DNA from: Pseudomonas phage HPP-Temi
Length of the DNA stretch: 64,000 bases
Strand: one strand, 5' to 3'
Sequence record: PP968062.1
Shown piece after piece: positions 1,032 to 13,122 of the stretch. The translations under genes were made by a program, and so were the position numbers. The notes under the pieces are model-generated. The model had not been told where the DNA came from. It did not search any database and saw only the letters and a list, made by a program, of their open reading frames with translations. Each line of letters opens with the position of its first letter. Positions within the stretch are counted from its first letter, which is position 1.

Positions 1032-2075
1032 ATGGCATTAAGTGATTATCTAACGCAAATTACACAGAACATTGGGATGTCGCCGCGCGATCGTTCCATT
1101 GAAGATTCCTTCAAAGGCCTGAACATCACAGGTCGTAACAATGCGATTTCGTTAAATACAGAAAACCATGGTTATACTTTCTTTACCCGCCCATTGCTGA
1201 ACTTGGCTGAGGATAACTGCATGGTGGACAGACGTCTGTCCATGATCCTGAATCCTAACCCACAAAGTATCGAGCGTATGGTTAGGGCATATTTGGATCC
1301 ACGAGCTCATAGTGAGGGTGGCACAACATGGTGCGCTGGAGTAGATCCTCTTAACCCTTTCATCCCTTTGCTCAGTAACAACTTGATTAGTCTTACTGGC
1401 TGGGAAGATTTCACTATCAACTTGGGAACCACAACTCCCGGTGTGTACCGTGACGTAATGTCCTACGTGGACGACGTGCCATATCAGTACAACACCTACG
1501 ATTTACAGGCGACGTTCCGCAATATTGCTGGAGATCCTATAACATGGATGTTCAAGATCTGGCTAGTCTATATGGGTCTCAATCGTGAGGGTCGTATCCT
1601 ACCTTATCCAGATTTGCTGATGTTAAACGAATACGATGCGAACACTCGTATCTATCGCTTAGTGATGGACTCTACTAAGACGTTTGTTACCCGAATTGCA
1701 GCTTGTGGTGCAGCGCTTCCAATGAACGCTCCTACAGGTCAGATCATCAACTTTACAGGCGATGGCGCAGAGACTCCGTTCCAAACTGCTAGTGATCAAC
1801 TCAACTTTAGTTTCCGTTGTATGGGAATGACAATTTACGATCATATCTTGATCTATGAGTTTAATGATCTTGTTGAAACATTTAACCCGCTAATGCGTGA
1901 CAACAATAGGGGTCGTCTGACTCAGAAGTTGAAACAGCATGAAAAGAAATGGTTTAACTTCCAAGCCTATCCATATATCAACGGTACTACCATGGAACTC
2001 GAATGGCATGTACCGAAATCTATCTACGAACAGTTGGCTGGTGGGAACCTGACCCGCGGATTCAATCCAAGTTGA
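1032..2075 (+). CDS. hypothetical protein
   Basis: ORF track 981..2075 (TTG); first ATG at 1032 (MALSDYLTQ...) in same frame; followed 10 nt later by next gene. Confidence 0.6.
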   Translation: MALSDYLTQITQNIGMSPRDRSIEDSFKGLNITGRNNAISLNTENHGYTFFTRPLLNLAEDNCMVDRRLSMILNPNPQSIERMVRAYLDPRAHSEGGTTWCAGVDPLNPFIPLLSNNLISLTGWEDFTINLGTTTPGVYRDVMSYVDDVPYQYNTYDLQATFRNIAGDPITWMFKIWLVYMGLNREGRILPYPDLLMLNEYDANTRIYRLVMDSTKTFVTRIAACGAALPMNAPTGQIINFTGDGAETPFQTASDQLNFSFRCMGMTIYDHILIYEFNDLVETFNPLMRDNNRGRLTQKLKQHEKKWFNFQAYPYINGTTMELEWHVPKSIYEQLAGGNLTRGFNPS

Positions 2076-2085
2076 GGAAATTTTA

Positions 2086-5001
2086 ATGAGTCAGTTTAAA
2101 GAACGGATGTATAGTGCACGACGCAACCCCGCGTTGATGCAGACCATCGCTCTTAATGAACTGGATGCGCAAATAAACGGCTCTGGTAACGGAGCCGTTG
2201 TTGCAGATATTCCAGATGCTTCCATTCCGTTCGTATTCTCTCTTGAATGCGGATCGATGGAAACCGCCATGGCTATCAGCGAGATGGAAGCTCTTGGTCG
2301 TCAGCTATATCCTCGTCTGTCCCTGAACAACGAAGAAATCTACAAGCACATGTCCGATGACGATTACATTGGACGTTTCGCTTCTCCGGCTAAGACACCG
2401 TTTAACTTCTTGATCGCTTATGATGAAATTATCGCTAAAGCCGTCCCCGTCGGTAACACCGGTATCCGTAAACTTATTATCCCTCGTCTGACCGAGTTCG
2501 ATGCTGCTGGTATTAAGTTCACTATGCAGTACCCGATTGAAATTCGTGTAATGCGTCATGGTGGCATCACGATTGAATATGTACTCGATAAGACTTCTCC
2601 CGTTGAGACCCTTTCTACTAACATTGTCCCTTGGACCATGTTGGTTATCGATCGTCGTAAAGTCGTGTCACTCCAGATTCCGGTTTATCAGTTTGCAGTT
2701 AAGACCCATACTGAATCCCTGAACCCATCGAGCTTGTTCCAACAGTCTTATCCATTCACTGATAAGTTCTTCTATGCTCGGGCTTATATTAGCCGTGCAG
2801 AGAATGATCAATGGGAGGAAGTTAAGACTACCCACTCCGATCTCGTTTATGACCCGATGAATCTGACCGTAGTGTTTAAGGTAGTGGGTAATAAACTCCA
2901 GGTGAGTATCCCGACTATCTACACCAATACACGGATGGCTCAAGGCGATATTCGAATCGACATCTATACCACTCAAGGTAAGATGGATCGTGATCTGGGT
3001 TCGTACAAAGCTAACCAGTTTAAATTCTGGCTGAATGACATCGATGATGATCGCACCTTTGTATCCCCTCTTACTACCTTTAACTTGATTCAAGCTTTGG
3101 CTCGTGGTCGTGTAGAGGGTGGCGCAGATTCGGTAGACTTCAACGTACTCCGTAACCAAGTTATCAATAACACCCTGGGTGCTAACCAGGTACCAATCAC
3201 TAACGTACAGATCGAAGATGCTGTTCAACGTCGTGGTTATACCTTAGTATCCAACATCGATAACATTACCAATCGTCAGTTCCTCGCCTCAAGACGTCTA
3301 GGAGAGCCTAGAGCGCTCGATGTTATTTCTGGTGCTGGCGTTGCTATGTCTCAGCTAAAGGTTGATATGGAGTCCCTAGCGGGCTCTGTACACGTGTTTG
3401 ACAATGGTGATCGTCTCACTATCAAACCGAGCATGCTTTATACGTTCAACAAAGGACGTGTGAACACTGTAGCCGATGCTGAGATTACTCGACTGACTGG
3501 CAGCACTGCCGAACAGATCGCTCGTGAAGTAAACAACGGTCGTTACGTATATTCTCCTTTCCACAACGTACTCGATGCATCGCGTGAGAACTTTGAGGTT
3601 CGTCCTTATTACTTGGATAACCCGACTATCACTGAGAAGATCTTCGTTGGCGAGAACGATACAGCTAACCTACAAGCAGCTATCGATGTATTCAATATCG
3701 AGAAGACTGAAGATGGTTATCGGATTACTGTTCGTTTGGAATCCGGAGAGCAGTTCAAGAAACTGGCCGATGAGCAGATCGTATTGCAAATTGGTTATCA
3801 ACCTCCAGGTGAGAATCGTTGGGCTTCCGTTAACGGTAAGTTCATCGGCATTGAAGATGAAGAACGCGTATTCGCTTTCGATATCAAGACAAGGCATGAC
3901 ATCAACTCGAAGAATGAACTGTATACGACTAACATGTCGATGTTCTCTGACGTACAGAACAACTTCGCTACTCCGTTGAACACTCTGCTTGACGTTACCA
4001 TCATGGTAGTCAATACTACAACTCCAGGTTATCAACCTAACGTGATCGATGAGATGGTTCAGGTTCACCTGCTCCCTCAGCAATTCATGGTTGTAAACCG
4101 TGAACGCCTCGTAACTGTATTGGGTTACGACATGACCAAGATGTGGCGGCGTAGCCGTACTGTTCTGGGTGATGAATCGTATCAACATTGGGACCACGAT
4201 GTAATGTGGTTCTATGAGGAGAATGAGTATCAGCGTGACGAACAAGGTAACATTATTGTTGAGATTCTTCCTAACGGTCAACTCGACTACAAGATCCTCC
4301 ACAAGAAAGGAGATCCTGTTCTGGATGCCAATGACGTTCAAGTTAAGAAGCATCAACGTGGTGATGTTATTCTAGACACTAATGGTCGACCTGTATTGGT
4401 TGCTCCTCGTAAGCGTCTTCGTGAAATCACTCTGATGATGGTCGATGGTTTGTTCTACTTCGCTAACGAGAAATCCGCTCTTGACTACAAAATCGAGATT
4501 CCGATGGAGTTCGTTACTTGGCTGGCAAACGACATCTCTATTCTTGATGCACAACTTCTTGAGATGTGCGAGATGTATCTCTATCCGACTACTACTTACG
4601 GTGACACTACTGTTACTGTTCGTGAAGGTCAGAAGGCTACCATCTCCGTAGACCAAGCGTTCACTCTTAGCTTCTATTTGAAGCCTGCTGAATACACCAA
4701 CACTACAATCCGTCCGAGCCTGATGTCTAATGGTAAGTCGGTATTAAACGAGTATATCAGTCGTAAGACTGTGTCGATGTCCGAGACAGTTGCACAACTG
4801 GAAGCTACCTCGGGTGATGGCGTACAAGCACTTGAAGTGTTCGGTCTGGGTGGCACTGACAACTACGCAATCCTTACAGTAGAAGACGATGCAGTTCGTT
4901 TGGCTATTCGTAAGAAGCTGGTTGTACTGGCTAACCAAGAACTGACTGTGGAGGATGACGTGCAGTTCAACTTCCTCAAACATGAAGTGCTTTCGAACTA
5001 A
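2086..5001 (+). CDS. large hypothetical protein (971 aa), possibly virion/structural
   Basis: Long uninterrupted ORF, SD GAGGAAA 7 nt upstream of ATG, ends at hairpin terminator 5012-5031. Confidence 0.75.
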   Translation: MSQFKERMYSARRNPALMQTIALNELDAQINGSGNGAVVADIPDASIPFVFSLECGSMETAMAISEMEALGRQLYPRLSLNNEEIYKHMSDDDYIGRFASPAKTPFNFLIAYDEIIAKAVPVGNTGIRKLIIPRLTEFDAAGIKFTMQYPIEIRVMRHGGITIEYVLDKTSPVETLSTNIVPWTMLVIDRRKVVSLQIPVYQFAVKTHTESLNPSSLFQQSYPFTDKFFYARAYISRAENDQWEEVKTTHSDLVYDPMNLTVVFKVVGNKLQVSIPTIYTNTRMAQGDIRIDIYTTQGKMDRDLGSYKANQFKFWLNDIDDDRTFVSPLTTFNLIQALARGRVEGGADSVDFNVLRNQVINNTLGANQVPITNVQIEDAVQRRGYTLVSNIDNITNRQFLASRRLGEPRALDVISGAGVAMSQLKVDMESLAGSVHVFDNGDRLTIKPSMLYTFNKGRVNTVADAEITRLTGSTAEQIAREVNNGRYVYSPFHNVLDASRENFEVRPYYLDNPTITEKIFVGENDTANLQAAIDVFNIEKTEDGYRITVRLESGEQFKKLADEQIVLQIGYQPPGENRWASVNGKFIGIEDEERVFAFDIKTRHDINSKNELYTTNMSMFSDVQNNFATPLNTLLDVTIMVVNTTTPGYQPNVIDEMVQVHLLPQQFMVVNRERLVTVLGYDMTKMWRRSRTVLGDESYQHWDHDVMWFYEENEYQRDEQGNIIVEILPNGQLDYKILHKKGDPVLDANDVQVKKHQRGDVILDTNGRPVLVAPRKRLREITLMMVDGLFYFANEKSALDYKIEIPMEFVTWLANDISILDAQLLEMCEMYLYPTTTYGDTTVTVREGQKATISVDQAFTLSFYLKPAEYTNTTIRPSLMSNGKSVLNEYISRKTVSMSETVAQLEATSGDGVQALEVFGLGGTDNYAILTVEDDAVRLAIRKKLVVLANQELTVEDDVQFNFLKHEVLSN

Positions 5002-8400: not shown

Positions 8401-10113
8401 ATGAGTGATGATATTTCTTTTAGTAAAGAAGATGTAGTTGGTATCGAAGCTAAACATATTACTTACGTTACCGACCGTAACCATCGCAAGCATGACTTGC
8501 ACGTTGTTAAAGAGGTCATCCATCTTAAGGACAAGCGTCGGATTCCTCGTCTCCGTTTTATTGAGGATTATGAACGTCCTTGGTGGTTGGACCCTGAGGC
8601 CAACAAGAAAGAAGGGCAACGTTCTTACACTGAGAAGAAAGACTACGAATATGAGAAGAAACTCCTCAAACGTAAGTCTACTCAAATTAACATGCCGCAC
8701 GCTATCGCTAAAGCTCTTGGTGATTACAGCATGGGTCCTAACCCACGGATGCGTCAACTGAGTCGTAGTCCTTATCTGTACGGTTCTGACGTTAGCTCTG
8801 TTTGCTATCTGAAGAACGACTATCGAATGGCTGCTCCTGATCTGATCTCTCGTAACACTGTCGCTGGTGGCGACATTGAGACCAACGTTTACGAAGATGG
8901 TAAAGATGGTGAGATCATCTGCATGTCCGTATCGTTTAAAGATAAAGTCTATCTGGCTTATCTGAAACGTTGGGTAAGTGACCTCAAAGATCCTATACAA
9001 GAAACCTTTGATGAACTGGAACGTATCCCTGAGTTGGTTGCTCTTCGTAAGGGACGTAATCTGAACATCGAGATCGAAGTAGTTGATCAACCGGTTCACA
9101 TCGTAATTAACTGCATAAAGCGTCTCCACAAATGGAAGCCTGACTTCTTCTCCTTCTGGAACATCAGCTTCGACATGAGTCGAATCCTGAAAACTCTGGA
9201 AGACGCTGGTGTTGATCCGGCGGTTGTATTTAGTGATCCGTCTGTACCGGCTAACTACAAGTACTTCCACTTCCGTCAAGATCAAGCGATGACCACTACG
9301 GCATCGGGTGTAACCAAGTCTAAAGGTCCAGAAGACCAATGGCACTGGATTACTTGCCCTGCATCTTTCCAACCGATCGATGCGATGTCTACTTACCGTG
9401 TAACTCGTCTGGCTAAAGGTAAGGAACCGTCTTACGCGCTTGATTACATTCTGAAGAAAGAACTCAACGTCGATGAAGATGCTGAGATTCTGGGTGAAGG
9501 TGATCTGGTTAAGTTCCAGAAAGGTCTCGACAAACTGTTAGCTGAACGTCCGGGTAGTTATCCTTATCTGTTCGTTAACTACAGCGGTAAAGAAGATGAC
9601 TGGACTCCGGTTGAACACTTCACTTGGGGTGACACTGTAAACCTGGGTAACCATGTTCGTTACACCATGAACTTTGGTAAGCTTAAGTTCCCTGAAACTG
9701 ATCACCTCGGAGGGATCGAATGGCACATTGAGATGCAGAAGAACCACAAGGTTCGTTATGGTCTTTACAACATCATCGACTCCATTCGTCTGGAGCAACT
9801 CGATGAGAAGATCAATGACCTTGCCAGTTCTATTACTCTGTTCTCGAAGTCTTCCGACTATAAGAACTTTAGCTCTAACCCGAAGCGTCTTTGTGACGAC
9901 ATGCACTTCTGGTATCTGAACCGTCCTGAGCCGTGTGTCATTGGTACTAGCTCTGACCAAATGGTTCACGAGCTCGATCAGTACGTAGTGGGTCACGATA
10001 GCTGGATTGTTACACTGCCTTCTTACATGGCTGGTCCGAACGGATTGAAGTGTGTTAAGGACTTACCTGATTACAAGACTTTGATCTTTAGCCACGTAGC
10101 TGATTTGGATTAA
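8401..10113 (+). CDS. family B DNA polymerase, N-terminal 3'-5' exonuclease part (split polymerase)
   Basis: Exo I GGDIETN, Exo II FWNISFDMSRIL, Exo III SYALDYILKKEL with typical spacing; SD AAAGGAA upstream of ATG. Confidence 0.65.
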   Translation: MSDDISFSKEDVVGIEAKHITYVTDRNHRKHDLHVVKEVIHLKDKRRIPRLRFIEDYERPWWLDPEANKKEGQRSYTEKKDYEYEKKLLKRKSTQINMPHAIAKALGDYSMGPNPRMRQLSRSPYLYGSDVSSVCYLKNDYRMAAPDLISRNTVAGGDIETNVYEDGKDGEIICMSVSFKDKVYLAYLKRWVSDLKDPIQETFDELERIPELVALRKGRNLNIEIEVVDQPVHIVINCIKRLHKWKPDFFSFWNISFDMSRILKTLEDAGVDPAVVFSDPSVPANYKYFHFRQDQAMTTTASGVTKSKGPEDQWHWITCPASFQPIDAMSTYRVTRLAKGKEPSYALDYILKKELNVDEDAEILGEGDLVKFQKGLDKLLAERPGSYPYLFVNYSGKEDDWTPVEHFTWGDTVNLGNHVRYTMNFGKLKFPETDHLGGIEWHIEMQKNHKVRYGLYNIIDSIRLEQLDEKINDLASSITLFSKSSDYKNFSSNPKRLCDDMHFWYLNRPEPCVIGTSSDQMVHELDQYVVGHDSWIVTLPSYMAGPNGLKCVKDLPDYKTLIFSHVADLD

Positions 10114-10162
10114 ATATACGTAAAGATGATATTTCCTGTTATTGTATACAGGAGATATTAAC

Positions 10163-11497
10163 ATGATAAATAATGACATGCGTTACTTACCTCACTCTGG
10201 TCGACGGTATATGGTCAGTCGTTGTGGTAAGGTGTATGATACGAGTGGTATTGAGATAAAGCCTAATGGTGGTAACGTCAGATTAACTTGGTTAAATGGC
10301 GACGATAGTTATTCGGTGGGCATGTTAGTAATTGTAACATACCAGCCTATATACCTACCTGATCACCTTTGGATAAAAATCGAACCTCTTCATCTAGATT
10401 GTGACCCTAACAATAATCATGTCGATAATTTGCGGTATCGTTTCGTAAATGGTAAATTGGAGTATGAAGCAATTCCAGGCTTCTACTATATTCCACATTA
10501 CACCAAATATGTAATCGATATTTACGGAAATATGCTCACTGCTGAAAATGGCAGAGATAAGACTTGGGGTTATGTAAAGTCAGATCTAGAACGTAATTCG
10601 AAAGGTGGATACAGATTTACACGAGTCGTTAATGAACCCGGTGTTAATTCTGTGCTACTTAGACATAGAGCGTTGTGTTTTGTGTTTAAACCAGTTGAGC
10701 GTGCAAGTGATTATGACTTGCTCGTAAACCACATTGATGGCGTACCAGGTAACGATAACTTAGACAATTTGGAATGGGCGACGTATGCAGAGAATAACAA
10801 GCATGCTCACGCCAACGGTCTAAGTGGTGGTAAAGCTAAAGGTGTACTGATGCGTAATATTGAAACCGGTGAACTGAGTAAATTCGCAACCACTAAAGAG
10901 GCGGCGAAAAGTCTTGGGCATGGTTCCAATGCACAAATACGACATCGCTTAAGACATGGTCAAACCATCCACTATCTCGATAATTTACAATTCAAATGGG
11001 ATGATGGTACCGACTGGCTGGATGTGGATATAACCACACCTGCTATTGAATGTAAAATCGGTACAATGATGGCTTCTCGAAATGTCTTAACTGGTGAAGT
11101 CAGAACTTTCGGATCATTTGAAGAAGGTGAGAAATTAACTGGTATTGACAAACAGACGATTGCAATTCATATTCGTGATAATCAGATTGTTCCTTTCCAA
11201 GGTTTTAATTTTGGTTGGTACAAAGAAGGCATGGAATGGCCTATTCATTCTGATATTAACATGAAGGCCTACAAGAAATATCCGACACGTACGCCTGACC
11301 CAATTATTGTGGAAGACATGATACTTGGGGATAAAGTAATCGTGGAAAGTAGGAATGAATTAGCTACTCTTCTTAAGATCAGTCCCAGTTATGCTACTCA
11401 ACTTGTGTCAAACGCAATGATTTATCAGGATAGGTACAAAATGACCTATCATCGTTTACGTGACAACATTTTAGTCCCATCAAGTTGGAATACTTGA
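10163..11497 (+). CDS. HNH homing endonuclease (HNH + AP2/NUMOD-like DNA-binding region)
   Basis: Motif NHIDGVPGNDNLDNLEWATYAENNKHA (H-N-H); SD AGGAGAT before ATG 10163; markedly AT-rich compared with flanks. Confidence 0.8.
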   Translation: MINNDMRYLPHSGRRYMVSRCGKVYDTSGIEIKPNGGNVRLTWLNGDDSYSVGMLVIVTYQPIYLPDHLWIKIEPLHLDCDPNNNHVDNLRYRFVNGKLEYEAIPGFYYIPHYTKYVIDIYGNMLTAENGRDKTWGYVKSDLERNSKGGYRFTRVVNEPGVNSVLLRHRALCFVFKPVERASDYDLLVNHIDGVPGNDNLDNLEWATYAENNKHAHANGLSGGKAKGVLMRNIETGELSKFATTKEAAKSLGHGSNAQIRHRLRHGQTIHYLDNLQFKWDDGTDWLDVDITTPAIECKIGTMMASRNVLTGEVRTFGSFEEGEKLTGIDKQTIAIHIRDNQIVPFQGFNFGWYKEGMEWPIHSDINMKAYKKYPTRTPDPIIVEDMILGDKVIVESRNELATLLKISPSYATQLVSNAMIYQDRYKMTYHRLRDNILVPSSWNT

Positions 11498-11835
11498 TGC
11501 AAACTTCTTTAATTGCCGGGGAAATCCTTAGAGACATGTACACCAAATCCATGTAGTGATACATGGACGGCCAGATTAACTACCTGGGTATGGTAAAAGA
11601 GACATGTATTGGGTGATCCGCAGCGAAGCTTCTCTCTGAGAAGAACGTTCAACGACTATCGAAACCACTGCGCAAGCAGACAAGGGAGTAGAGTAGGATC
11701 AAGTGATCCGAAATGGGAAGCATCCGATCCTCGCAAGAGAAGGATGGTGATATAGTCTCCACATCCAGGGAAAGCCTGGAGCAGCACGTTATAGTGCGGA
11801 TAGAGCGTAACGAACTCTATCGAAGATACTGGATT
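11498..11835 (+). ncRNA. group I self-splicing intron catalytic core (P3-P9)
   Basis: P element AATTGCCGGGGAAATCC 11511-11527; Q GATCCGCAGCG 11615-11625; R GTTCAACGACTATCG 11646-11660; S GATGGTGATATAGTCTCC 11744-11760; P7 GACTA/TAGTC; P9 hairpin CCAGGGAAAGCCTGG 11765-11779; close matches to Tetrahymena/T4 consensus elements. Confidence 0.8.
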
Positions 11836-12063
11836 GTCAGTACTTATCCGAACGTTAGCCAGATTCTCAACATTGCTCGGGAAACAACTGTCATGGAATT
11901 CTCCATGATGAAAGATATCTCTGAGCATCATCGTCGAGAAGTAGGGGTGAACTTAACTGGTGGTCGTGTCAACGCTATTGAGATCTGCCAGAAGATCATG
12001 AAAGCTCCGAAGTTGGATGAGATGTTGAAGCTCTACATGGAGAAGAAGGCTAACTCCCCAAAG
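11797..12063 (+). CDS. putative downstream exon or displaced 3' gene segment (frame of ORF 11713..12066)
   Basis: Only open frame after intron core; candidate 3' splice sites after G at 11781/11796/11832; start coordinate uncertain. Confidence 0.3.
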
Positions 12064-12094
12064 TAACATATCGATGGAAACGCCGCGGAGGATA

Positions 12095-12143: not shown

Positions 12144-12431
12144 ATGCCAGATGGTCGTACAATCGAGATGCACTATCAATGTGACATCAAAGGTTATGAA
12201 CCAGGTGGTACTAATTGGAAGCTTGGTAAAGGTAAACCTCCATTAGCTTCTATAAACTCCTGGGAGGCCTATTACGGGCTTTGGGAGACTTGGGCTAAGG
12301 CAAACCCTGACTTGATGAAAGAACTTCGTATAGGAGCCGATAAGAACGAAGGATATCTTTCTGATGTCTTTGCATCGACTAGTATTTCACAGGCTCGTGC
12401 TCTAGCAGAACTTTTGAACAAAGGCTATTGA
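12144..12431 (+). CDS. hypothetical small protein (95 aa)
   Basis: ORF track; weak SD; ends at hairpin 12441-12459. Confidence 0.35.
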   Translation: MPDGRTIEMHYQCDIKGYEPGGTNWKLGKGKPPLASINSWEAYYGLWETWAKANPDLMKELRIGADKNEGYLSDVFASTSISQARALAELLNKGY

Positions 12432-12436
12432 CAACA

Positions 12437-12468
12437 TATTGCCCGGCTTAAGGCCGGGCTTTATGTCG
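12437..12468. terminator. bidirectional hairpin (GCCCGGC-ttaag-GCCGGGC) + CTTTATGTCG
   Basis: Near-identical, inverted copy of element at 5008-5040; between convergent genes. Confidence 0.7.
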
Positions 12469-13122
12469 TTAAGCTTTACCAATCAAATCTAGAACAGGTC
12501 GCCAACCATAGTTAGCCATACCTGAATCAGCTATTTCGGTCGTGGTACCGATTAGCTGGTTATACCCGCGTGCGCGGTGAAACTGTGGATCAGCAGCGGA
12601 TTCTTCTTGGACCCAGCAAGCACTTCCTACTACAGAGGGAGCACACCCCAATTCAACATTCGTGAAACTAGCTAATACTGGATTATAGTTAGCTGACCTA
12701 CCCACGCCTAGTGGATACATCCAACGCTCCCACTCGCCACCCCAACTTATCGTGTTAGATACAACATTCTTAGTTGTACCGGTCATAACTCGAACACGAA
12801 ACTGATGTCTACCGATTTGGATGATCTTACCAAAGATAAGATCTTTCGCATTTAGTTCAGTCCATCGAATGTTGTTTCTCAATTGCTGTTTAGCAATGTA
12901 GATAAGTTTCCCGTTTTCCACCATTTTTAACCAACCGCCCGCGGTTGCAATAGGCGTACCTTCGGTGATACCAACGAGGTTAGCAAAAGCCAAAGGTCCA
13001 GGTAAGCCTTCTACAAACTCACCATAAAAGCCATGGAGAGAACTACCAGAGATAAGTTCTTGCGGGCCAGGTGGTAATGTGTCATCGTACATCTTAAGTA
13101 CGGAAAGCAATGACTCGAACAT
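12469..13122 (-). CDS. hypothetical protein with MFESLL N-terminus (possible fiber/receptor-binding C-domain)
   Basis: ORF track; N-terminal MFESLLSVL shared with 54409..55326. Confidence 0.65.
   Translation of the reverse strand: MFESLLSVLKMYDDTLPPGPQELISGSSLHGFYGEFVEGLPGPLAFANLVGITEGTPIATAGGWLKMVENGKLIYIAKQQLRNNIRWTELNAKDLIFGKIIQIGRHQFRVRVMTGTTKNVVSNTISWGGEWERWMYPLGVGRSANYNPVLASFTNVELGCAPSVVGSACWVQEESAADPQFHRARGYNQLIGTTTEIADSGMANYGWRPVLDLIGKA

Follow-up and report, generated by a model that had tools for sequence, protein, structure and literature searches.

Why does a DNA polymerase gene of Pseudomonas phage HPP-Temi stop in the middle of what reads as a catalytic motif, with the remainder of that motif reappearing some 1.7 kb downstream, behind an AT-rich open reading frame (ORF) of the HNH type? 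We studied this locus in a 64,000-nt stretch of the phage's DNA (PP968062.1; hereafter the window, with all features on the plus strand unless stated otherwise). An initial annotation, made from the letters alone, had placed a group I intron with an HNH homing endonuclease at 10114-12063, beside a polymerase exonuclease gene, and had named a covariance-model scan and an alignment with intron-less homologues as suitable checks. With a probability that we put at roughly 0.87, positions 10111-11832 of the window are a mobile, phage-type group I intron that splits a DNA polymerase gene into two exons. The span proposed earlier needs a small correction, as 11833-12066 belongs to the second exon and is not intronic.

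The interrupted polymerase gene

Exon 1 (8401-10110) comprises 570 codons with what read as the Exo I-III motifs and ends in GAU, the codon for Asp570 of a putative motif A; exon 2 (11833-12066) consists of 77 codons plus the stop and starts with IVSTYPN, the remainder of that motif. The exon-1 reading frame is closed by a UAA at 10111-10113, exactly where the stop had been noted before, and this triplet constitutes the first three bases of the intron. The last base of exon 1 is U10110 and the last base of the intron is G11832, the omega-G; group I splicing chemistry demands a U before the 5' splice site and a terminal intron G. Both splice sites were fixed by the alignment with intron-less homologues, and the junctions are identical in phage PhiPA3 and in two metagenomic contigs (L006 and L007). 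The block so delimited measures 1722 nt, or 3 x 574. The covariance scan likewise bore the proposal out: Rfam RF00028 (Intron_gpI) matched 11446-11781 over the full model (1-253) at 59.2 bits, where the gathering score is 50 bits, and with E = 1.7e-12. Rfam matched nothing else in the 64-kb window, not even at E <= 0.01, and a search of the window for further introns or tRNAs found none.

The comparison with phage HHBS36_1 is particularly direct, as its homologous region is a single annotated 647-amino-acid (aa) 'DNA polymerase' ORF that reads through the junction (...GCTGACCTTGAC|ATCGTTTCG...). Across the insertion point its DNA is ...CACGTAGCTGACCTTGAC|ATCGTTTCGACTTATCCG... and its protein ...SHVADLD|IVSTYPNVSQ..., and the target sequence of the empty site in HHBS36_1 and PA1C is CACGTAGCTGACCTTGACATCGTTTCGACTTATCCG. 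Because intron-less relatives align continuously across the site, 10111-11832 is an inserted block. Its excision yields a 647-aa ORF that is collinear with the uninterrupted homologues, with a predicted exon-exon junction of ...GCUGAUUUGGAU|AUUGUCAGUACU... (RNA ...GGAU|AUUGUC...). This spliced product is 84.8% identical to HHBS36_1 in nucleotides and 94% in amino acids, and it matches PHROG 3011 'DNA polymerase' over its full length (residues 6-644 aligned with positions 3-570 of the 576-position profile, E = 3e-235). Exon 2 corresponds in the alignment to the C-terminal end of the uninterrupted homologues, amino-acid conservation beginning exactly at I571. As had been noticed before, only one frame stays open after the core, and it runs to the stop at 12064-12066. 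From the sequences of these junctions we infer that the intron is spliced.

Four blocks are invariant in the alignment of the spliced product: DIET (158-161), NxxFD (254-258), YNxxD (456-460) and D568-L-D570-I-x-S-x-Y-P-N577. We read them as Exo I, Exo II, Exo III and motif A (DxxSLYPS) of a family-B polymerase, with Asp570 as the putative catalytic aspartate; the RefSeq notes for Goslar gp068 and 201phi2-1 gp144 cite DNA_pol_B_exo1. Within D-I-V-S-T-Y-P-N, the intron directly follows GAU, the Asp570 codon. Homing elements typically insert at catalytic codons. A comparable case is the insertion that carries gp210 of PhiPA3, which lies just after two conserved Asp codons of an RNA polymerase gene (PMC11620839). 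The spliced polymerase ends about 70 aa past motif A and has no recognisable motifs B or C. The remaining polymerase must be a separate gene; PhiPA3 gp47 has been called a putative DNA polymerase (10.1101/2023.09.22.559000).

The ribozyme core and the endonuclease reading frame

The elements that the initial annotation had picked out by eye, namely P, Q, R, S, a P7 pairing GACTA/TAGTC and a P9 hairpin, are all present and fall on covariation-supported helices. P (AATTGCCGGGGAAATCC, 11510-11527) makes up the 5' strand of P4 together with P5, Q (GATCCGCAGCG, 11615-11625) contributes P4'/P6, R (GTTCAACGACTATCG, 11647-11661) P6'/P7, and S (GATGGTGATATAGTCTCC, 11743-11760) P8'/P7'. The catalytic core, as drawn from the Rfam alignment, RNAalifold, pair counts with controls and a coordinate map, extends over 11504-11781. 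It comprises P3 (11504-09/11715-20), P4 (11514-20/11617-22), P5 with an extension and P6/P6a within the same interval, P7 (GACUA/UAGUC, 11654-58/11753-57), which forms a pseudoknot with P3, P7.2 (11696-11700/11705-11709), P8 (11721-25/11742-46) and the P9 hairpin (11764-69/11775-80). On the 5' side, the P2 hairpin (11478-11499) holds the endonuclease stop codon UGA (11495-11497). On the 3' side follow two peripheral hairpins, P9.1 (11784-87/11794-97) and P9.2 (11799-805/11815-21), and then, still within 11784-11832, a tail (GAAGAUACUGG) that ends in the omega-G.

Covariation was assessed from the guide sequence to exon 2 in five polymerase-gene introns, those of HPP-Temi, PhiPA3 and three metagenomic contigs (L006-L008), with 64% mean column identity. 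RNAalifold recovered P2, P3, P4, P5, P6/P6a, P7.2, P8, P9 and P9.2 from this alignment, with compensatory changes in 28 of 60 pairs; adding the P7 pseudoknot and P9.1 by hand gave a structure of 69 pairs. In this structure, 93.2% of the cells form standard pairs, as compared to 38-43% when the 3' partners are slid by one to three columns, and 31 pairs are changed on both sides (2-9 in the slid controls), a degree of covariation that none of 500 column shuffles reached. The co-variation of P, Q, R and S that was to be expected in relatives of a genuine intron is thus present. Double changes affect all five pairs of P7.2, and compensatory changes were seen in five of nine pairs of P2, two of four of P9.1 and four of seven of P9.2. 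P7 itself is invariant as GACUA/UAGUC in the five introns and reads GACCA/UGGUC in phage Goslar, a compensatory difference. Between P7 and P3' lies a 56-nt insertion that contains P7.2 and a poorly aligned P7.1; extra helices at this place may indicate the phage-type subgroup IA. In the same region, a 22-nt insertion that is absent from the PhiPA3 copy includes a GNRA-capped mini-hairpin, CUGC-GCAA-GCAG (11668-11679), whose tetraloop could engage in a tertiary contact.

At the 5' splice site, the P1 strand GGAU|UAAA (10107-10114) pairs with the internal guide sequence UUUAGUCC (11470-11477), so that cleavage would occur after U10110, which forms a wobble pair with G11474 within the 8-bp helix. 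The same pairing is found in PhiPA3, L006-L008 and Goslar. In every occupied allele, exon 1 ends in ...GAYYUGGAU, followed at once by UAA or UAG, and A/G-GUCC-C stands directly 5' of P2 (six introns); a G precedes AUUGU in all occupied alleles that reach exon 2. Two other pairings were discarded. A P10 between UGACAA (11461-11466) and UUGUCA of exon 2 (11834-11839) is not kept in PhiPA3, L006 or L007 and was treated as chance, and the local 'P1' that Rfam drew at 11450-11481 is full of non-standard pairs and was taken to be an artefact of what the model expects.

About 1355 nt, including the endonuclease gene, separate the two strands of P1 and form its loop, which in PhiPA3 counts only 3 nt. 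There, P1 is a compact hairpin (GGAU|UAA-AUA-UUAGUCC) stacked directly on P2, and a mimic of the window intron deprived of its ORF folds to the same stacked P1 and P2. Judged by this sequence comparison, the endonuclease ORF sits in the P1 loop. The initial annotation had located it in the P1-P2 periphery and called this unusual; with the ORF-less PhiPA3 copy at hand, the location holds and becomes more precise, and the qualifier does not apply among the chimallivirus introns examined. Here the layout is typical of the family, being common to every ORF-containing chimallivirus intron examined (phiKZ gp179-type, PhiPA3 gp210, Goslar and the metagenomic contigs). Relative to the classic T4 and SPO1 introns, an ORF in the P1 loop is indeed unusual. 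The last eight sense codons of the endonuclease and its stop run through the 3' strand of P1 and P2, the guide base G11474 being the first base of a Val codon and GUC CCA encoding Val-Pro. The C-terminus of the protein (...VPS(S/D)W..) is conserved because its coding sequence doubles as P1 3' strand and P2.

A similar pair of states exists in the virion RNA polymerase (vRNAP) gene of phiKZ-type phages, where the KEN49 intron (1501-1800) has no ORF and its OMKO1 counterpart holds a gp179-like HNH gene in the P1 loop, on an 893-nt insertion that separates the splice site from the guide GUUUC. Within about 2.2 kb, this vRNAP beta-gene region contains three (KEN49, 1501-3630) or two (OMKO1, 2872-3630) Rfam-positive group I introns, and a 75-nt stretch of another KEN49/OMKO1 core is 93-97% identical to window positions 11640-11714.

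The endonuclease ORF (10163-11497) runs from an ATG at 10163 to the stop at 11495-11497 and encodes 444 aa. It had been described as AT-rich, which agrees with a GC content of 39.5% as compared to about 45% in the flanking exons and 46% in the window. Pfam HNH_3 (30.1 bits, cut-off 24.8) and PHROG 59 (1e-28) both match the protein, and NUMOD1 reaches 22.0 bits, just under its cut-off of 22.8. A sequence search of the PDB with the endonuclease returned nothing meaningful. An AlphaFold model built with 32 homologues (mean pLDDT 91.4) found a single Foldseek match below 1e-3 in the PDB, I-HmuI (1u3e_M; E 3.2e-9, probability 1.00), with a TM-score of only 0.49 on the target, the domains being arranged as an extended chain. 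In the catalytic block VNHIDGVPGNDNLDNLEWATYAENNKH, residues N189, H190, N202, N211 and H214 are invariant in the 32 homologues. After the HNH domain, the model shows three beta-beta-alpha-alpha, NUMOD1-like repeats (228-265, 303-338 and 381-416), and this modular build suggests that the DNA target may be long and modular too. We infer activity, specificity and homing of the enzyme by analogy with its relatives. Residues 1-100 (10163-10462) resemble a degenerate duplicate of the I-HmuI-like module (PLHLDCDPNNNHVDNL versus VNHIDGVPGNDNLDNL), and the His of this N-terminal module varies among homologues. In a collection of 5.8 billion proteins, the nearest relative is 59% identical and belongs to a family of proteins of about 450 aa at 49-59% identity; a scan of IMG/VR for close copies found only Goslar-like relatives at 31-32%. 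By these comparisons, the endonuclease is new in sequence.

Just upstream of the ORF, positions 10127-10160 form a 13-bp hairpin (-15.5 kcal/mol, z -4.5, none of 200 shuffles as stable), the 3' arm of which includes the endonuclease Shine-Dalgarno sequence AGGAG (10150-10154), 8 nt before the AUG. Hairpins of unrelated sequence occupy the same position in L006 (z -7.2), L007 (z -3.75) and Goslar (z -4.4), with a weak one in L008. The hairpin probably restrains endonuclease translation, for which T4 I-TevI provides an analogy, and its recurrence suggests conserved translational masking of the homing endonuclease.

Alleles, mobility and competing explanations

The phage records that match the window best, at about 85% identity, are PS119XW, phiLBG22, BRkr, phiHQ, HHBS36_1 and PA1C; the host of the intron is a PhiPA3/PS119XW-like, nucleus-forming Pseudomonas jumbo phage. 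In seven close relatives, the alignment falls into two collinear parts between which about 1.7 kb of the query has no counterpart, and their 647-aa ORF is uninterrupted. With a 177-aa query spanning the junction, we found the gene in 289 phage records; it is uninterrupted in 285, and the interrupted form occurs only in PhiPA3 and Goslar, with two records each. In Goslar, the polymerase ORF gp068 stops at ...FVAD and exon 2 begins with LDISSSYPN, so that its insertion would lie 6 nt upstream of the site used in HPP-Temi and PhiPA3; gp069 is the best phage homologue of the window HNH protein (31% identity). The Goslar core scores 44.7 bits (E = 1e-9), below the gathering score, and has large P5 and P6 insertions. 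Besides, three endonuclease homologues with 53-55% identity (P0008, P0009 and P0012) occupy the same polymerase site in the metagenomic, phiKZ-like contigs L006-L008. In these contigs, a gp86-like gene, a gp85-like gene and a gene of 416-439 aa precede polymerase exon 1, after which come the HNH ORF, a gap of roughly 400 nt and a short ORF; two of the three gaps pass the Rfam cut-off (89 and 58.9 bits).

Two of these loci deserve a remark on their own records. In PhiPA3 (NC_028999, our locus L002), gp085 is annotated only up to the same UAA, and both the ORF-less 344-nt intron (3040-3383, 71.7 bits) and the 78-codon exon 2 (3384-3621) are unannotated; this copy is apparently undescribed in the searchable literature. 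In Goslar (NC_048170, our locus L005), 2864-4625 combines gp068, gp069 (NUMOD1/HNH) and an 820-nt 'spacer', which together reveal an unannotated group I intron.

The intron is 82.6% identical between the window and PhiPA3, close to the exon identity of about 80%, and the endonuclease identity to the metagenomic copies (53-55%) tracks that of the polymerase (56-58%). Because the divergence of intron and endonuclease parallels that of the exons, the element looks old in its lineage. Empty, full and ORF-less states among close relatives would fit the classical homing cycle, in which an intron is gained, its ORF decays and the element is lost. The base at -1 is U in every occupied allele and C in the four empty alleles checked (HHBS36_1, OMKO1, 201phi2-1 and Psa21), all of which read GAC|ATY. 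Around the junction (-7 to +8), the window and HHBS36_1 disagree in nine of 16 positions, each time synonymously, and the adjoining 40-50 nt are nearly identical; seven of the nine match PhiPA3. The a-priori binomial P of this cluster is 1.8e-4, yet nine differences are only the joint maximum gene-wide (permutation P ~0.05). The pattern is compatible with a short co-conversion tract or with selection on P1 pairing. We also considered a 'resistance' recoding of the target, which was not established, as the empty alleles of Psa21 and 201phi2-1 resemble occupied ones except at -1.

Taken at face value, these features outline how the element would work. The polymerase gene would be transcribed as a single pre-mRNA, in which the exon end GGAU pairs with the guide GUCC 1364 nt downstream to give P1, whose U.G wobble falls on the splice site. 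The core P3-P9 would fold, bind guanosine, cut after U10110 and then join the exons after G11832, restoring the 647-aa ORF, while the UAA at the intron start would halt ribosomes on unspliced RNA. The 1.35-kb P1 loop would carry an independently translated, I-HmuI-like HNH endonuclease of 444 aa with its own AGGAG and AUG, partly masked by the hairpin. If it behaves like I-HmuI, I-BasI and PhiPA3 gp210, the enzyme would attack the polymerase gene of a co-infecting relative that lacks the intron, nicking or cutting it near GAC|ATC, and repair from the intron-bearing copy would spread the intron. A more speculative and, in our view, rather unlikely extension is that the position of the endonuclease inside the P1 loop, the ORF end overlapping guide and P2, and the buried ribosome-binding site might be adaptations to the phage nucleus, and that the enzyme could be a gp210-like weapon. 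Splicing would then take place where there are no ribosomes, and the endonuclease would be made only from exported RNA and be re-imported; as a weapon, it would nick the motif-A region of the gene for DNA polymerase in intron-less competitors of the PS119XW, PA1C or phiKZ type.

Several observations speak against a functional intron in a family-B polymerase gene. ONT-cappable-seq of phiKZ saw no spliced reads for the predicted phiKZ introns (PMC10914365), and for this phage family the word used of in vivo splicing continues to be 'putative' (PMC11620839). P1 is a short duplex of 8 bp with an energy of -7.8 kcal/mol, formed across 1.36 kb. A blind complementarity search returned chance helices of 7-10 bp, as long as P1, elsewhere in the intron, and when the whole RNA is folded to its pseudoknot-free minimum free energy (MFE), P1 is not obtained and GGAU has another partner. 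Because neither approach singles out P1, we assigned it by position and by homology across six introns, among them the compact P1 of PhiPA3. A search for a conserved P10 found none, and the cores of L007 and Goslar score under the Rfam gathering score. The covariation test comprises five sequences only, and part of its structure came out of the very alignment used for the test, which inflates the contrast with the slid controls. As for the polymerase, the family-B and motif-A call comes from motifs read by eye and from the annotations of others; Pfam with the polymerase and PDB sequence searches with the spliced polymerase and a five-sequence profile found nothing.

The missing phiKZ reads and the weakness of the long-range P1, overlooked by MFE folding, would suit a splicing-dead relic, perhaps disabled by the 1.35-kb insertion into P1, with the gene giving two separate polypeptides or the 570-aa part alone; an in-frame ATG at 11713 does open a 117-aa ORF into exon 2. 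We nevertheless hold a relic to be very improbable. Its 31 compensatory pairs place the core under structural selection, and no occupied allele has lost the U at -1, the omega-G or the guide GUCC. Conservation as protein starts at Ile571 and is absent from the stretch upstream of exon 2, which contains a stop in PhiPA3, and a catalytic motif split across two chains would be unprecedented. Moreover, the ORF-in-P1 layout has been retained across distant phages, and also by the gp210 intron, whose host is an essential RNA polymerase gene. Even less credence is due to the idea that a free-standing HNH gene lies in a spacer and that a separate short intron starts near 11446. Free-standing HNH genes beside introns are known in other phages, and the Rfam match does span only 11446-11781 with a local P1. 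This P1, however, consists largely of non-standard pairs, there is neither upstream exon sequence at 11446 nor a frame-correct joining of exons from there, and intron-less alleles show all of 10111-11832 as inserted. The exon-1 stop marks the 5' splice site in PhiPA3, and the window keeps this GGAU|UAA motif at 10107-10113. We rank this explanation last.

A further alternative overlaps with the homing intron that we favour, in that the intron would splice and only the endonuclease would have ceased to home, being either inactive or kept as a weapon against the polymerase gene of competitors. It can draw on gp210, which nicks the phiKZ vRNAP gene and thereby confers a competitive advantage (PMC11620839), on the near-equal identity of intron (82.6%) and exons (about 80%) to PhiPA3, which fits vertical descent over recent homing, and on the target-site codons, which are conserved in phiKZ-type, PS119XW-type, 201phi2-1 and Psa21 alleles. 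Yet the full-length ORF, invariant catalytic residues and confident fold make inactivity unlikely, and close relatives carry the element patchily, as is classically expected where homing entails gain and loss; we therefore see little chance for this alternative, slightly less than for the relic.

Known relatives and wider relevance

HNH-bearing group I introns in phage DNA polymerase genes are classical, as in SPO1 (I-HmuI), Bastille (I-BasI) and LUZ24. With SPO1/SP82 I-HmuI and Bastille I-BasI, the window shares a phage DNA polymerase gene whose group I intron encodes an HNH endonuclease. It differs from SPO1 I-HmuI in the position of the ORF within the ribozyme, the proteins show no similarity by phmmer, and the window protein has three NUMOD1-like repeats plus the duplicated N-terminal module. 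Also, the SPO1 host polymerase belongs to a different family, family A. The mechanism expected of I-HmuI-type enzymes is homing initiated by nicking.

Among chimalliviruses, introns have been reported in the PhiPA3 vRNAP gene (gp210; PMC11620839) and in the PhiPA3 non-virion RNA polymerase (nvRNAP) gene (gp65-66; 10.1101/2023.09.22.559000), and phiKZ introns have been predicted at gp56, gp72 and gp179. The closest parallel in architecture is the gp210 intron in the vRNAP beta-subunit gene (gp211/gp209; Birkholz et al. 2024, PMC11620839). It has the same order of exon 1, HNH ORF and core, the 3' end of its ORF overlaps the core start and contains A-GUCCC-A, its core scores 67.8 bits in Rfam, and both introns insert after a conserved Asp codon in the catalytic region of an essential polymerase. 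The endonucleases are homologous (26.5% identity over 73% of the query) but highly divergent, gp210 having 330 aa as compared to 444 aa and an extra N-terminal module in HPP-Temi. The host genes differ, with an RNA polymerase there and a DNA polymerase here, and so does the evidence: activity and competitive effect have been demonstrated for gp210, while the window endonuclease is known from its sequence and model. The PhiPA3 gene 085 intron, on the other hand, shares insertion site, splice-site sequences, P1, P2 and core (82.6% identical) with the window, but lacks the endonuclease ORF, with a P1 loop of 3 instead of 1355 nt, and the 22-nt GNRA hairpin in the P7.1 region. In Goslar and L006-L008, exon 1 likewise stops at the motif-A Asp region and a homologous HNH ORF in the P1 loop precedes the group I core; Goslar is set apart by its putative insertion 6 nt upstream and by large extra peripheral domains that put its core under the Rfam cut-off. 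None of these four is described as an intron in its own record, and a full-text literature search found no description of an intron in a gp085/gp82-type polymerase gene. Overall, the window intron is a well-supported, ordinary example of a known selfish element that brings along a novel endonuclease sequence.

For annotation, the consequence would be one 647-aa polymerase instead of a 570-aa 'exonuclease' and orphan ORFs, and the same correction applies to PhiPA3 gp085 and Goslar gp068, both of which lack an annotated second exon. Motif A of the DNA polymerase would also become a second essential-gene target among the few intron endonucleases known in nucleus-forming jumbo phages; for one of these enzymes, a decisive role in phage-phage competition has been demonstrated. 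The locus offers three allele states for comparison, namely empty (PS119XW, PA1C and HHBS36_1), intron with endonuclease (HPP-Temi) and intron alone (PhiPA3). This may be relevant to therapeutic cocktails that combine such phages, and the endonuclease is a candidate long-target nicking enzyme and, as such, a possible tool.

Group I core segments of related sequence (80-87% identical over 70-145 nt) are found in PS119XW (NC_070882, 44766-44899), KIL1 (NC_030934, 20425-20537) and PaGz-1 (NC_073603, 60845-60913). One of them resides in the PS119XW-type phages, which are without the polymerase intron, and the others lie inside or beside terminase and 'endonuclease VII' genes of unrelated Pseudomonas phages, which points to an intron pool shared among Pseudomonas phages. 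A scan for sigma-70 promoters gave 8 sites where 6.1 were expected and is uninformative because these phages use their own RNA polymerases. Downstream of the polymerase gene, between the convergent ORFs 12144-12431 (plus strand) and 12469-13122 (minus strand), a perfect GC-rich hairpin (GCCCGGC..GCCGGGC, 12441-12459) has T-runs on both strands and resembles a bidirectional terminator.

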